Positions 12,121-16,675 of a DNA stretch of 64,000 nucleotides are shown here, piece after piece. Source of the DNA: Candidatus Hydrogenedentota bacterium (lineage in GTDB: Bacteria; Hydrogenedentota; Hydrogenedentia; Hydrogenedentales; SLHB01); NCBI GenBank assembly GCA_963668025.2, contig CAXXTH010000023.1, positions 288,001-352,000 of the forward strand, given 5' to 3'. The position numbers and the translations under genes are program-made. Every line of letters begins with the position of its first letter. The stretch's first letter is position 1. The notes below the pieces were generated by a model, which saw only the letters and a list, made by a program, of their open reading frames with translations, was not told the origin of the DNA and ran no database searches.

Positions 12121-12710
12121 GTGACTCTCCCTGTACGAACAGACGAAGAGCTTATGTCTCAATTGCGGGATGGCGACTCCGCGGCGCTGGCTGAGCTGGT
12201 GCGCATATATCAGAACGATATTTTCCGGTTTTGTGTGCATTATGTAAAAGATGTGGAGCTGGCTCGCGAGATGGCGCAGGAAACATTCATACGGGTGTAT
12301 GTGGCCCGGGGGCGCTTTGATAGCGCCCGGAAGTTCCGCCCATGGCTCCTTGTGCATCGCGCGTAATTTGTGCTTGAATGAGATCAAGCGGCGAAAAACG
12401 GTTCCCATGGAATCGTTCGAGGAATATGTGGCCGCCGCTCATACGAATAGGGAAGAGCCGCTGGGTATGGCCAGCAGCGCTCCGGACACGGAACTCATGG
12501 CGCAGGAGCGCGAGGGAAATGCTCGCCGCCGCCATCGAAAGCCTGGATGCGGAGTCACGTGAAATCGTGGTGTTGCGCTTTTTTGAACAGCTTTCGGCGC
12601 GTGAGATTGCCGATATAGTGGGGGGGACGGAAGGGGCCGTGCGCACACGGCTTCACCGGATTTTGAAAGGGCTTCGCGACCGGTACGCCGGGGCGAAGCA
12701 GAATTTGTGA
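12121..12710 (+). CDS. ECF sigma-70 factor (two apparent frameshifts)
   Basis: RBS GGAGG then GTG; region 2 (DEELM...GDSAALAELV, AQETFIRVY, FRPWL, IARNLCLN) and region 4 (REIVVLRFFEQLSAREIA...GAVRTRLHR) are spread over three frames. Confidence 0.85.
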
Positions 12711-14450
12711 TGAATACGACTGGGGACAATTATTTCGAGGAACTCGCCGCGCATCTCATGGGCGCGCTTTGAAGGTGGGCAATGCCGCGCCTTCGAGGAG
12801 AAACTGCGCCAATCAGAAGAGATGCAGGCGGATTATGCCTGGTTAAAGCAGCTTTTTGAAGATGCCCGCGTGTTAAAAGACGCTTATGAACGCGATCTTC
12901 CCGAAATGAACCTCGCTGATAACGTAGTGGCGATGGCCGCTTTGCGCGAGGAGACGGAATTTGGCGTGGACTATTCCCGTTTGGCGGATATAGCTTTAGG
13001 CCAGGCCTCGCCTTGGGATGAACAAGACGCCCTTGAAACGAGCCCGCATGCTTCGGCCTTGGACGCGGAAAAAGCTTGGGTGGAAGAGGTGGCGAACGGC
13101 TTAACCGGGCTTGCCTGTTCTTATAAGCAGACACTGCCGAAAATCGATATAACCGATTCTGTAATGCGCGCGATTGCAGGGGAAGCACATGCGGAGCCTC
13201 GAGTTTCTTTTCGCGCCCGCTTAATCTCGCGCCGTGCGAGAATCCTCTCCTGGGCCAGCCTGGCGGCGGCGGCTTCTATTCTCATGGCGGCTGGATTCAT
13301 TGCAAGCCTGATGCCGGATGGAGAGCTAGGCGCGCCAAAAGAGATGGCAAGCAATGTACATGGCAGCCATAATCCTCAAGACGTGCTGGCGGGCCTCTCA
13401 GAAGCATATGAAAACCTGCACAGGCCGTATTTGTCTGAGCCGAACACTATATTGGAAGAGGTTCCTGAGCCCGATATGAGCGCCTTGACGTTCACGCAAG
13501 TGGCTGATGCGGCGCGCAAATGGGGTTCTGATCCCGTTTCGCGGCGTCAAATACAGCAGTGGGCGGCTCTGACGGCGAATGAGGCCCGGTCCCTTATAGA
13601 TGGGGGGCAAGCGCCTGCCGGGGCGGTCATCGCGGCGGCGGCGTCATTGCCTTCTTCTGAGCAGGCAGCGGCGATGTATGCCGTTATCGGCTACCTCAAA
13701 GACCAGCCCGCCGCCCAATTCGCCCTGGCCCGCGCCCAACAGGAATCAAAACAAGCGCCGGAAGTCACGCAGAAAAGCTTGGAAACCTTGAGCGCGCTGG
13801 ACCCGGATAATGCGTTATCGTATTACTTGCAGGCGCGCATGCTGTTGGAAGCTGGAGACGTACAAGGGGCGCTTGAATTACTCGCCCAGGCCCGCCAGCT
13901 CGATTCCGCGACGGCGTACGGGCTCGACTCCGCGCGCTACACCGTGGAAGCGCTTCTCGCCAGCGGATTGGACATTGATACGGCGCGGATGCTGGCTGCT
14001 TTGACTGCGGGGGGTAAACAGTATGAATTTCTTTGCCAATTAGGATATAATCTGTTACAATATGGCCAATCTTTTGAGTCGGCAGGCGATTCAAGCACTG
14101 CGGAAGAGCTCTATCAGTCTGTCCAACGGCTTGGCGAGCAGTTGAATAATGGGGAAACGCTTGTACCGGAACGCCTTGCAGGGCTGGATATGGAACAAGC
14201 AGCCATCACGCTGATGTCTCAAGTATATACCTTGCTTGGGTCAATGGATGGATTGCAGACTCTGGCCACTGAGGCAGTGGAGCTTGTCAGCAGTTTGGAA
14301 TCGCTCAATGCGTTTGTGGAAAGCGTGGATGCGTTTTATGCGTCTGTAACCGATCTAAGCCTGTTCAACTCGTATGCGGATCAAGTGTTAGAGAATGGGC
14401 ATCGGTCCATGCTAGAGGCGTTCCGATCCGGCGCAAGTTCCGTAAGCTAG
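12710..14450 (+). CDS. Putative anti-sigma factor: N-terminal cytoplasmic domain(s), one TM helix, large helical/TPR-like extracytoplasmic domain (frameshift near the N-terminus)
   Basis: ATG overlaps the sigma stop (TGATG); MNTTGDNYFEELAAHL joins the 12822 ORF after a frameshift; TM ILSWASLAAAASILMAAGFIASLM; TPR-like LDPDNALSYYLQARMLLEAGDVQGALELL. Confidence 0.65.
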
Positions 14451-14536
14451 ATAATCCAGGCGCAGTCCAATGAACAATAAGAATAGAAACACCGGCGCGG
14501 CCTGGCGGCCTGCGAGGCAAATGGATAATCTGTTAC

Positions 14537-14565
14537 TTGCGTCAACAATAGAAATAGTTCACAAT
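14537..14565 (+). promoter_or_regulatory. Putative sigma70 promoter of the peptide operon
   Basis: TTGCGT-N17-CACAAT about 100 nt upstream of peptide 1. Confidence 0.45.
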
Positions 14566-14664
14566 AGAGTCCATTCGGTTGTAGCTTGCGGCAACGCAAG
14601 AGGCAATAGCGGTTCGGAGAGCTAAGTCAACACAAGTCGGAAGGAGAAGGGAGGTGAACGTAGA

Positions 14665-14817
14665 ATGAAGCACATCCACATGATGTCGGCGGTGAAGCCT
14701 GCCAAGGCGGAAGAGGTCGCATGGGTTCAACTGAAAGACCTCATCGGCTTTACAGCGATTACCAATCAGCAGAGCGAATGGCTTTCGTTGCAGTTGGACA
14801 ATTATCTTCAGAAGTAA
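14665..14817 (+). CDS. Small peptide 1 (50 aa), MKH...PAKA leader family
   Basis: RBS GGAGGTGA; MKHIHMMSAVKPAKA-EEVAWVQLKDLIGFTAITNQQSEWLSLQLDNYLQK; below the ORF-track cutoff. Confidence 0.85.
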   Translation: MKHIHMMSAVKPAKAEEVAWVQLKDLIGFTAITNQQSEWLSLQLDNYLQK

Positions 14818-14973
14818 ACACGGAATCAGCTGAGTAGGCTGAGCCGTAGTGCGGAAGAAGAGACTAGGGGTAAACGCATCGCTGGCCATCCCTGGGCTCT
14901 CCTTGAATAGAGCACAACCAATTGAAGTGGGAAAAGCTGGCCAAGTACAGTATTCCGCGAAAGGAATCGGCAG

Positions 14974-15120
14974 ATGAAACACATCAAACCGGTAAACGAG
15001 AAGGCCATTCCGGCCCGCGCTAACATTTTTACTCTTGCGTTGGAAGCAATCGACAAGAGTGATTATCTCAGCGACCTTTGGAACCACGACGGCTCTTTGG
15101 ATCCTGAGGATATTTACTAG
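14974..15120 (+). CDS. Small peptide 2 (48 aa), MKH...PARA leader family
   Basis: RBS AAGGA; MKHIKPVNEKAIPARA-NIFTLALEAIDKSDYLSDLWNHDGSLDPEDIY. Confidence 0.85.
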   Translation: MKHIKPVNEKAIPARANIFTLALEAIDKSDYLSDLWNHDGSLDPEDIY

Positions 15121-15203
15121 TCACAGCGTGCGCGGGGCGGCCCTGGGCCGTCCCGTACGACATTGAGAAACCATAAGTTATCTGTGCAAGGAGGTGAAGA
15201 CCA

Positions 15204-15416
15204 ATGAAGCACATTACACATGTGACCAAGAAGTCCTCGGTTCCTGCGAAGGCGCAGGTTCTGAATAAAGGCAGTTGGGGTCAAGTTGGCAATTCGTGGG
15301 GCGGGCCGTTCATGGGCACGCTTGGTGCGAATACGCTCGGCGATATCGCTATCGGAATCGCCTCGGTGGCGGAAAAAGCGGGCCTGGTTACCGTGTTTCC
15401 GGACGAGATTCGCTAG
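15204..15416 (+). CDS. Small peptide 3 (70 aa), MKH...PAKA leader family
   Basis: RBS AAGGAGGTGA; MKHITHVTKKSSVPAKA-QVLNKGSWGQVGNSWGGPFMGTLGANTLGDIAIGIASVAEKAGLVTVFPDEIR. Confidence 0.88.
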   Translation: MKHITHVTKKSSVPAKAQVLNKGSWGQVGNSWGGPFMGTLGANTLGDIAIGIASVAEKAGLVTVFPDEIR

Positions 15417-15467
15417 AACGTGGGTGGATGCAATGGGCGTCCGCTTTACATAAGGAGGCCGCAAACA

Positions 15468-15602
15468 ATGAAGCATGTAGTGGCAATTGCAAAAATGGTG
15501 CCTGCGAAGGCGGCATGCGATACCAGCCAATACAAAGCCCCTATCGGTTTACCGACCGTGGGTTACAACAGCCCGAAATCGGATTTTCGCGACGATTCCT
15601 GA
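15468..15602 (+). CDS. Small peptide 4 (44 aa as read; possibly 66 aa), MKH...PAKA leader family
   Basis: RBS TAAGGAGG; MKHVVAIAKMVPAKA-ACDTSQYKAPIGLPTVGYNSPKSDFRDDS. Confidence 0.85.
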   Translation: MKHVVAIAKMVPAKAACDTSQYKAPIGLPTVGYNSPKSDFRDDS

Positions 15603-15674
15603 TGACTAGCAGGATGGGTTGCATTATCCGCTACAGCAATTGCCTATTGGCAAAATGCTGGCAATGAATCGTAT

Positions 15675-15713
15675 GAGCCGTAGTGGAAGGAGAATCGCTG
15701 CGGCTCTCTTTTT
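15675..15713 (+). terminator. Intrinsic terminator closing the peptide operon
   Basis: GAGCCGTAGTG / CGCTGCGGCTC 11-bp stem (2 G-U pairs), 10-nt loop, then TCTTTTT. Confidence 0.7.
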
Positions 15714-15743
15714 GTCTCTCGAACGAATCGAAATTGGCAGGCC

Positions 15744-16466
15744 ATGCGCAGATCCCGACGCATAGAATTTGAACCTGAATTATCCGCTCTTCTCGGTGGG
15801 CGCACCCGGCGTTTTAAGAAGAACGCGGTATTTCCTCGCTGGATGCTGGGTTTAGTCTTTTTGGCGGCTATAGCCGCCGGATATCTATTATGGGGGCATG
15901 TCTCCTGGCCTTCATTTTTGAGTTTTGATCCTGAAAAAAGGGAATTACTCGAAACAAATCGTGAATTGTGGAAAGCGCTGCAATCGAATAACCTTCCTGT
16001 CGCTGCGAATCTTTTCTTTGATGATGTTTCACCTGCTTCAAACGGCTCCGAGCCGCCTGCGTTATCCCCGGATACGCGTGAGATGCATTTGAGGATGCTC
16101 CAGACCGTGCGGGAGGATTTAACGAACGCGGGTATTGATTGGGCTTCTGCGTTGCCGGTGGCGTTTGCGGGTGTACGTGCGCGTGCGCTTGAACCAGGTA
16201 CGGAAGGCCAGGATGTATCGGTAGCCTTGGGCGAGCTATATATCCGCAGTCTGGATTCGCTTTTCGTTATCGAGCTCAGCACACGCTACAGCGGGAGTGC
16301 GTGCCAGATTGTCGAATTATGGCACTGGGGAAAATCTGATCAGGATCCAGCCGCGCTGCGTGAGTTGCCCGAATCGAAAAAACGTGAGTTTTTATCGGAG
16401 AATTTAGAACCGTCAACCGAGCAAATTCGCTTTGCGGATGTGCGTTCATTATTCGTTTCGTTTTAG
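15744..16466 (+). CDS. Hypothetical single-pass membrane protein
   Basis: 240-aa ORF; basic N-terminus followed by TM (WMLGLVFLAAIAAGYLLW). Confidence 0.6.
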   Translation: MRRSRRIEFEPELSALLGGRTRRFKKNAVFPRWMLGLVFLAAIAAGYLLWGHVSWPSFLSFDPEKRELLETNRELWKALQSNNLPVAANLFFDDVSPASNGSEPPALSPDTREMHLRMLQTVREDLTNAGIDWASALPVAFAGVRARALEPGTEGQDVSVALGELYIRSLDSLFVIELSTRYSGSACQIVELWHWGKSDQDPAALRELPESKKREFLSENLEPSTEQIRFADVRSLFVSF

Positions 16467-16675
16467 CAAGATCCGCCGAGTTCACCATATCGCCTTGTAT
16501 TCCTTTTATGCGGATGGTTTCTCATTTCCGAATGCTAATGAAATTTCTTTTTGCCTTCTGATTTGGAGTAATATGGCCTGGATTCGGTGGCCGTTAAAAA
16601 GGACAGGCGATAAGGCCGGATAGAAGGGTTTGCCGCCTAATTGTCCTGGGATTCTGCAAGAAGGGGCCTGCACGC

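Follow-up and report, generated by a model that had tools for sequence, protein, structure and literature searches.

The prochlorosins illustrate how one maturation system, that of ProcM, can serve many genome-scattered precursors that combine a common leader with unrelated cores. Two other systems are described in excerpts of published work. The N-terminal domain of CteB, the maturase of the ranthipeptide SCIFF, is a recognition element (RRE) for peptides made on ribosomes and modified after translation (RiPPs), to which the CteA leader binds by beta-sheet extension (PMC6231123, excerpt). The GNAT maturases of selidamides acylate lysine or ornithine side chains, with acceptors clustered at core termini, and selidamide precursors, encoded in clusters with lanthionine synthetases, have leaders of the NHLP or Nif11 type with Gly-Gly at the end (PMC8784127, excerpt). 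Here we analyze an operon of four small peptides that share an N-terminal leader, found within a 64,000-nucleotide stretch of contig CAXXTH010000023.1 from a Candidatus Hydrogenedentota bacterium ('the window'; positions 288,001 to 352,000). The genome to which the window belongs, labeled G000, comprises 6.1 Mb in 24 contigs with a G+C content of 55%.

Our favored interpretation, to which we assign a probability of roughly 0.6, is that the four open reading frames (ORFs) are 'orphan' precursors that would be processed in trans by a RiPP-type system ancestral to Hydrogenedentota. Because the same N-terminal tag is found on peptides encoded beside a conserved processing cluster, the window peptides probably belong to a new family of ribosomal peptide precursors. 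A literature search for Hydrogenedentota leader peptides and RiPPs, judged from titles and abstract openings, returned no description of such a system.

A leader family specific to Hydrogenedentota

The four ORFs are co-oriented on the forward strand and encode peptides of 50, 48, 70 and 44 amino acids (aa); their coordinates and leaders were reproduced as given in an earlier reading of the window (the first-pass annotation). Peptide 1 (positions 14665-14817) has a 15-aa MKH...PAKA leader and a Trp-containing core, assigned to core family C, that ends in a C-terminal lysine. Peptide 2 (14974-15120) joins a 16-aa MKH...PARA leader to an acidic core, peptide 3 (15204-15416) a 17-aa MKH...PAKA leader to a Gly-rich core, and peptide 4 (15468-15602) a 15-aa MKH...PAKA leader with alanine at position 8 to a polar core with one cysteine. 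Each ORF has its own Shine-Dalgarno (SD) sequence, of the GGAG/AGGA type and located 6-12 nt upstream in 4/4 cases. The shared N-terminus can be written MKH[IV]..PA[KR]A, and all four ORFs (44-70 aa) present the generic features of RiPP precursors: short length, a conserved leader and a variable core. Consistent with the proposal that the peptides belong to no described family, the four sequences gave 0 Pfam and 0 NCBIfam matches at E-values up to 10.

Three known leader types were considered and rejected. Sec or Tat signal peptides do not fit, as the leaders of the family are 13-19 aa long, polar or basic, and lack both a hydrophobic h-region and an RR motif; conventional-looking Sec and lipoprotein signals occur on other proteins of G000. 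Leaders of the double-glycine type, cleaved by peptidase-containing ABC transporters (PCATs), were set aside since the junctions read PAKA, PARA, RADA and similar, without GG, GA or GS at positions -2/-1. NHLP and Nif11 leaders ending in Gly-Gly were rejected on the same P-x-x-A junction and on the lack of any Pfam or NCBIfam leader-family match.

Searches with regular expressions, DNA patterns and profiles recovered further members of the leader family in G000 and in related genomes. A length-unfiltered regular expression found the four window ORFs and three more in G000, all seven of 44-70 aa. We built a profile (A1) from an alignment of 46 leader-bearing peptides; it is biased towards PAKA, and conservation in it is confined to the first ~15 residues. 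Profile A1 identifies 12 leader-bearing peptides in G000 and scores peptide 4 at 35.8 bits; with divergent leaders from the other searches the total rises to about 20. Roughly 12-20 genes of this kind per genome lie near or below the usual gene-calling cut-offs.

A degenerate DNA pattern for the two blocks of the leader gave 22 matches across 41 related genomes, compared with 2 for a reversed control, and matched 40 of 135 Hydrogenedentota genomes; those matches that were translated were all SD-led ORFs of 31-73 aa, so that in G000 and in relatives alike the leader was seen on small ORFs only. Profile A1 extended this range to 102/135 genomes of the phylum, including 51/53 in the window's own family, and matched 0/2 genomes from outside the main order. 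Orphan peptides from at least eight GTDB families retain both blocks of the leader together with the P-x-x-A junction. For comparisons of cores and leaders we collected 132 distinct leader-bearing peptides.

We then scanned a tighter DNA pattern over ~185,000 species, represented by one genome each, and obtained 113 matching stretches. In 38 of these the match lies in frame within an SD-led ORF of at most 75 aa, and all 38 come from Hydrogenedentota genomes: 23 bear Hydrogenedentota, -es or -ales titles, and the stretches matched in the other 15 also came back in a phylum-restricted search. The titles of those 15 disagree with this placement, 13 being labeled 'uncultured Nitrospirales/Nitrospiraceae bacterium', one 'FCB group' and one 'uncultured bacterium'. 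Five more in-frame matches, from other phyla, lack an SD sequence or lie inside long ORFs, and the remaining 70 stretches are not in frame. In about 40 Sphingomonadales genomes the pattern matches one and the same span of 42 nt (e.g., L046, L048, L050); at this length none of these matches can be in frame, and they presumably reflect a conserved gene segment unrelated to the leader family.

At the protein level, a search of 5.8 billion sequences with profile A1 yielded 21 matches at E <= 0.01, among which the only source name is 'hypothetical protein' of Candidatus Hydrogenedentes bacterium. The leader defines a Hydrogenedentota-specific peptide family. This agrees with the suggestion of the first-pass annotation that it is a new leader class on precursors of RiPP, bacteriocin or signaling type: the family is phylum-specific and matches no curated family.

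A probable processing cluster beside the same leader

Processing machinery had been predicted to be encoded outside the window. A tblastn search of the window, made with the cluster proteins described below as the only queries, gave no match at E <= 1e-3, in line with the first-pass statement that the window holds no maturase or ABC exporter. On another contig of G000, precursors with the same leader lie next to genes for an RRE-bearing CteB homolog, GNATs, a CPBP protease and an ABC system (C17:581988-588594). The same compact cluster holds the single profile match in the small genomes of a genus (g37) from a distant family.

The cluster consists of one to six leader-bearing small ORFs followed by two GNAT genes, a CPBP gene, an ABC ATPase, an ABC-2 permease and a gene for a 642-aa protein, and this order is identical in 22/22 loci from 22 genomes spanning the phylum. 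Leader-bearing precursors lie 4-5 kb upstream of an RRE-bearing maturase homolog in 22/22 clusters, the arrangement generally expected of a RiPP locus. The last precursor, located just before the GNAT genes, is highly conserved; an ESM Atlas look-up of it returned no usable match. Within the precursor regions, 50/99 SD-led ORFs of at least 25 aa start with M[KRN]H. By our own reading of the output, most other real-looking ORFs have variants of this start (MKRL.., MVHI.., MSTKHL..), and frames that overlap account for many of the remainder. In 13/22 clusters, from several families, gltD – encoding the small subunit of glutamate synthase – lies immediately upstream of the precursor genes.

We also considered an ATCUN motif, an N-terminal X-X-His metal site, in the leader. 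Cluster precursors start with MKRL.., MVHI.., MSTKHL.. or MKKHV.., so the histidine is neither invariant nor fixed at position 3, and the idea was rejected.

The cluster protease is of the CPBP/Rce1-like intramembrane type, with EExxxR, FxxxH and HxxR motifs each present in at least 90% of 21 sequences. The ABC ATPase is DrrA-like and paired with the ABC-2 permease. The two stand-alone GNATs match PF13302 and PF13420, and a third GNAT is fused to the 642-aa protein. Elsewhere on the same contig (C17:872247-873624), a divergent orphan peptide whose leader ends in PMRA has a co-oriented ABC ATPase gene behind it, the product of which shares 32% identity with the cluster ATPase.

To characterize the 642-aa protein we aligned its family (A3) and inspected 22 sequences for motifs. 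Positions 5-436 of A3 align with positions 5-445 of CteB (PDB 5wgg_A; E 2.4e-49), a span that covers the RRE, radical-SAM and SPASM domains, while positions 472-636 match GNAT structures and constitute a C-terminal GNAT domain. With the SPASM model TIGR04085 the family reaches 40 bits, above the cut-off of 27; equivalog NCBIfam models score far under theirs (71.5 versus 425). The radical-SAM CxxxCxxC motif is found in 0/22 homologs, and the cysteine triad of CteB faces a Cys-free stretch, whereas the four SPASM cysteines are invariant. The RRE-like N-terminal domain carries an invariant His8 and a near-invariant CxCxxC (C24, C26, C29) without counterpart in CteB (L163:5989-7914, equivalent to C17:581988-583913); together these residues could form an added metal site in the leader-binding domain. 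Co-folding of the RRE region (A3 residues 1-110) with peptide 1 (A1), run without controls, scored 0.12 and 0.02 against a mark of 0.32 and counts neither as support for binding nor as evidence against it. Public records name the protein 'SPASM domain-containing protein', 'GNAT family N-acetyltransferase', 'radical SAM protein with 4Fe4S-binding SPASM domain', 'uncharacterized protein' or 'hypothetical protein'.

Several lines of evidence link the window peptides to this cluster. The 642-aa gene is single-copy in G000 and is present in 124/135 genomes of the phylum, including 83/86 of high quality. Tallying the two tables, we found it in 101 of the 102 A1-positive genomes, while ten genomes, mostly of one clade, lack both the gene and an A1 match; as the genomes are related, this phyletic pattern is a matter of consistency and not proof. 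By coordinate comparison, at least 12 genomes have a same-strand profile match located 4-5 kb upstream of the 642-aa gene.

A further line is a leader model built independently of the window, from 62 cluster-encoded precursors of 21 other genomes, with which we scored 376,511 candidate N-termini of G000. The genome's own cluster precursor ranked 1st, and peptides 1, 3 and 2 of the window ranked 7th, 13th and 22nd. Among the top 25, 23 are ORFs of at most 75 aa, compared with 50% of all candidates. The copies of a porin-linked peptide described below ranked 47 and 64.

Other RiPP markers were sought in G000: PqqD-type RREs numbered 0, and the C39 peptidase model (PF03412) gave one partial 27-bit match in a 126-aa frame. 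By coordinate comparison, none of the seven SPASM enzymes of G000 lies beside a leader-bearing peptide.

Cores, partner genes and the operon neighborhood

The cores had been described as unrelated and hypervariable. They are not hypervariable noise, as they form conserved families with partner genes of their own. In the 132-peptide set the core of peptide 1 has relatives in five other peptides (E 6e-8 to 4e-4), that of peptide 2 has a single weak relative (E 0.058), and those of peptides 3 and 4 have none. Nor does all similarity stop after PA(K/R)A, as the first-pass annotation had it: the cores fall into conserved families and have a C-proximal lysine in common, so similarity is not entirely ended after the leader. 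Lysine is present in 97/97 non-redundant cores. The last lysine lies within eight residues of the C-terminus in 74/97, compared with 44 +/- 4.4 after shuffling, and 0/2000 shuffles reached the observed count – a test that overstates the bias because the cores are related to one another. In the window, the last lysine is C-terminal in peptide 1, seven residues from the end in peptide 4, 12 in peptide 3 and 20 in peptide 2, which is an exception. Most cores contain 0-2 cysteines, and several have paired or multiple cysteines.

We clustered the flanking genes of 49 non-redundant loci, a tabulation of conserved neighbors that the first-pass annotation had proposed. Partners proved specific to the core family, and no enzyme, protease or exporter neighbor is common to all core families across the 49 loci. 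A two-Cys core family has genes for an LRR lipoprotein and VWA/BACON lipoproteins downstream (7 loci). A second family is located directly 3' of genes for phosphate-selective porin O/P, in 4 loci. Two of these loci are in G000, where the porin O/P-peptide pairs are paralogous copies with a 50-aa peptide (L002:6294-8922 and L004:8723-10383, on C18 and C10) and PhoU is the next gene in one of them; the pairing also occurs in two other genomes.

Several other loci are worth recording. On contig C3 of G000 (L001:1529-3619), near the contig end, the gene immediately downstream of an orphan peptide encodes the reverse transcriptase/maturase of a group II intron. Some peptides (L078:3043-3138, L126:1743-1838 and related ones) have very short Lys/Pro/Val-rich cores with KPVK-type repeats; the cores of most members are helical and hydrophobic. 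In genome G019 (L011:1419-1700), the C-terminal end of a near-identical core is encoded just upstream of a two-Cys peptide, which points to tandem duplication of precursor genes.

Control by sigma-54 was considered and rejected: activators lie within 8 kb of 7/49 loci, but a loose -24/-12 match occurs in only 1/58 upstream regions. Inspected by eye, the 58 upstream regions contain no common DNA or RNA motif; a conserved block is shared by family-C operons only.

At the window operon itself, the promoter-like site of the first-pass annotation lacks consensus support, as we found 0 sigma-70 consensus promoters in 14400-15800. A contig assembled from RNA does begin near the operon start, at 14596, and positions ~14551-14567 form a block that is conserved across genera. 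The terminator proposed 3' of the operon was recovered as an intrinsic-terminator-like hairpin on the forward strand (15675-15706), with a 12-bp stem in which 7/12 pairs are G-C and a T-rich tail behind it.

The operon is preceded and followed by genes on the same strand. An extracytoplasmic function (ECF) sigma factor gene (12251-12710, with the region 4 Pfam match at 12378-12710) is read in three frames, with region 2, the middle part and region 4 each in a different frame, corresponding to two apparent frameshifts. Its homologs in relatives are intact proteins of 211-217 aa with Sigma70_r2, r4 and ECF matches, and the frameshifts in the window may represent assembly indel errors rather than a pseudogene. 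Relative to the window, a short-read DNA contig has a 1-nt deletion at 12768, a position that falls after the sigma gene and ahead of where a putative anti-sigma factor is called to start (12822-14450); this indel suggests that the true start of the latter lies further upstream. The called ORF encodes 542 aa with one membrane span and a TPR-like outer domain that gives weak TPR matches. In five related loci its homologs lie directly 3' of the sigma gene, and the G009 homolog has a zf-HC2 anti-sigma domain (E 4.7e-8). Downstream of the operon, a 240-aa protein (15744-16466) has one N-terminal membrane span and no Pfam match; CheX and then FliP/FliO follow.

Relatives of the peptide 1 core lie downstream of sigma/anti-sigma pairs in five loci of other genera, and these loci carry additional leader-bearing peptides behind the peptide 1 relative. 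In genome G001, a 30%-identical homolog of the 240-aa protein comes after a leader-bearing peptide. No paralogs of the window's sigma, anti-sigma or 240-aa genes were found near other G000 peptides.

We compared window positions 12200-16500 with RNA contigs from two metatranscriptome runs of two studies, both labeled activated sludge. Coverage by the RNA contigs is confined to the peptide operon, at 14596-15116 (97.5% identical) and at 14638-15607 (with an 814-nt piece at 99.4% identity). Peptide 1 is covered by RNA contigs, peptide 2 by contigs of both runs, peptide 3 by the 814-nt contig and peptide 4 by the contig ending at 15607, whereas the sigma, anti-sigma and 240-aa genes are covered by DNA runs and by none of the RNA contigs. 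Contigs of this kind carry no information on level, strand or exact ends, and carry-over of DNA is possible; the uncovered flanks serve as an internal control.

Proposed mechanism, alternatives and known systems

Under the favored interpretation, the N-terminal block M-K-H-hydrophobic-x-x-hydrophobic-S/T-K/R would be the recognition sequence and the following P-x-x-A, usually PAKA, the leader-core junction, both being read in trans by the single C17 cluster. The 642-aa protein would represent a CteB-like enzyme in which the iron-sulfur site of the radical-SAM domain was lost and a GNAT was acquired at the C-terminus. Its RRE domain would bind the leader as a beta strand, GNAT activity would acylate or acetylate the core, most plausibly at the conserved C-proximal lysine, the CPBP protease would cut the leader off at the AxA junction, and the ABC system would carry the product into or across the inner membrane. 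Lysine N-acylation or acetylation is the most plausible modification given the C-proximal lysine of the cores and the three GNAT domains of the cluster. The cell envelope would be the site of action of the mature window peptides, whose probable partner here is the anti-sigma factor with its outer TPR domain. Their position in a conserved cassette of sigma factor, TPR-bearing anti-sigma factor, peptides and membrane protein suggests that they may be ligands or effectors of a signaling module. That nearly all genomes of this uncultivated phylum have the system, in a single copy, points to a physiological function, in signaling or at the envelope, more than to an accessory antibiotic.

A broader proposal, which we consider speculative and rather unlikely, is that the cluster constitutes a phylum-wide, trans-acting 'peptide-tagging hub'. 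A dead CteB-type scaffold with its GNAT would acylate, and possibly lipidate, the C-proximal lysine of leader-tagged peptides, the CPBP protease and ABC system would then release them to the envelope, and leader-tagged genes would have scattered into operons as ligands or subunits. The window peptides could then be ligands of the anti-sigma outer TPR domain in a RiPP-based ECF signaling loop, and other members partners of phosphate porins or of LRR and VWA lipoproteins. 

If the favored interpretation is right, the system would provide a leader class not known before, probably also an additional RiPP class, and a radical-SAM/SPASM enzyme without radical chemistry and with a GNAT – an enzyme turned recognition scaffold. 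The cassette of ECF sigma factor, TPR-bearing anti-sigma factor and peptides would offer a testable model of peptide-based cell-surface signaling in diderms, and a promiscuous leader-guided acyltransferase would be useful for engineered lipopeptides (compare PMC13647313, excerpt).

Several observations weigh against processing of the window peptides by the cluster. Cluster and window peptides are on separate contigs, and what links the two is only the leader motif and the phyletic pattern. That pattern is not independent evidence, because the 11 genomes without the 642-aa gene are mostly of one clade. One A1-positive genome (G102, 88% complete) lacks the gene, and 23 genomes have the gene without an A1 match; profile A1 does under-call, since a genome without a match (G057) has leader-bearing precursors in its cluster. 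In the independent leader model peptide 4 ranks 574 of 376,511, and the single-match E-values of peptides 1-3 are modest (0.05-1.8). M1, K2, H3 and PAKA look invariant in part because our search patterns and regular expressions required them. As for the enzymes, the radical-SAM site of the CteB homolog is dead, the GNATs match RimJ/RimL and spermidine-acetyltransferase types, and no outer-membrane export step was identified. ABC-2 and CPBP genes of bacteriocin loci are often immunity genes, as those of the cluster might be, and the GNATs might act on another substrate. Antibiotic RiPPs, moreover, are not usually encoded by a single-copy cluster that almost the whole phylum retains.

The loss of the radical-SAM site in 22/22 sequences would fit if the leader were only an export or sorting tag, with the ABC-2 and CPBP proteins forming a route that cuts at AxA, the cores left unmodified and the CteB-like protein at most a leader-binding chaperone. 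The partners of the core families fit such a role, being proteins of the envelope (porin O/P, LRR and VWA lipoproteins, and the anti-sigma factor with its outer TPR domain), as do the paired or multiple cysteines of several cores, often found in secreted peptides, and a leader that lacks a Sec h-region in a genome with ordinary Sec and lipoprotein signals. Yet three GNAT domains are retained in all 22 cluster loci, the SPASM cysteines are invariant and the position-biased lysine of the cores suggests a common modification site. ABC-2 transporters of this type are not known to export peptides in a leader-dependent manner, and overall we regard an export tag without modification as unlikely.

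The location of the orphans in unrelated operons distant from the cluster, together with the poor cluster-model ranks of peptide 4 (574) and the porin-linked copies (47 and 64), would also be expected if the tag were vestigial – the orphans having arisen from duplicated cluster precursors and now being unprocessed membrane or regulatory micro-proteins whose N-terminus is kept for translation or stability. The dN/dS comparison of leader and core proposed in the first-pass annotation argues otherwise: values are below 1 in both, at 0.26-0.32 for leaders and 0.12-0.47 for cores (5 families), although they are rough because dS is saturated (above 1). Leaders and cores are thus under purifying selection, as strong on orphan leaders as on cores, and because leaders vary at synonymous sites the constraint acts on the peptide. 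Coupled with the retention of both blocks and of the P-x-x-A junction in orphans, this makes a vestigial tag very unlikely. A role for machinery unrelated to the C17 cluster, with the likeness of leaders due to convergence or to shared ancestry only, draws on the orphan at C17:873624, which has its own ABC ATPase homolog behind it, and on the sigma-54 activators near 7/49 loci. Against this, 57/58 peptides checked have no upstream sigma-54 promoter, no enzyme, protease or exporter neighbor recurs across core families in the 49 loci, and G000 lacks a PqqD-type RRE, has only a weak partial C39 match and encodes its seven SPASM enzymes away from the peptides; we therefore find a separate machinery highly improbable.

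Among known systems, CteB/SCIFF (PDB 5WGG) is similar in that the 642-aa family aligns with CteB over the RRE, AdoMet-radical and SPASM domains and in that a maturase gene lies near short precursors with a conserved leader, so the RRE-leader logic described in the excerpt would apply (PMC6231123). It differs in several respects. The 642-aa family lacks CxxxCxxC (0/22) and retains the four invariant SPASM cysteines only, it has an H/CxCxxC motif in the RRE region and a fused C-terminal GNAT, and the precursors are not six-Cys SCIFF peptides and match no NCBIfam precursor model. The selidamides likewise have GNATs in a RiPP-type cluster and resemble the present system in the concentration of lysine near the core terminus as a possible acyl acceptor. 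Here, however, the leader is 13-19 aa long and ends in AxA, and there is no LanM-type gene among the cluster genes.

Double-glycine bacteriocins and microcins of the PCAT type have leaders of similar length on small peptides, and CPBP and ABC-2 genes are common in bacteriocin loci. The peptides described here differ in having no GG or GA junction, and G000 has no C39-ABC exporter, its one C39 match being partial (27 bits). Substrates of Sec and signal peptidase I share a basic N-terminus and an A-x-A before the junction, but the leaders here have no hydrophobic h-region. The prochlorosins have the layout proposed here for the present peptides and differ in their Nif11-type leader, LanM enzyme and lanthionine chemistry. 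A further difference from the ProcM system is that the orphans of Hydrogenedentota belong to conserved operons, next to genes for partners with envelope or regulatory roles.

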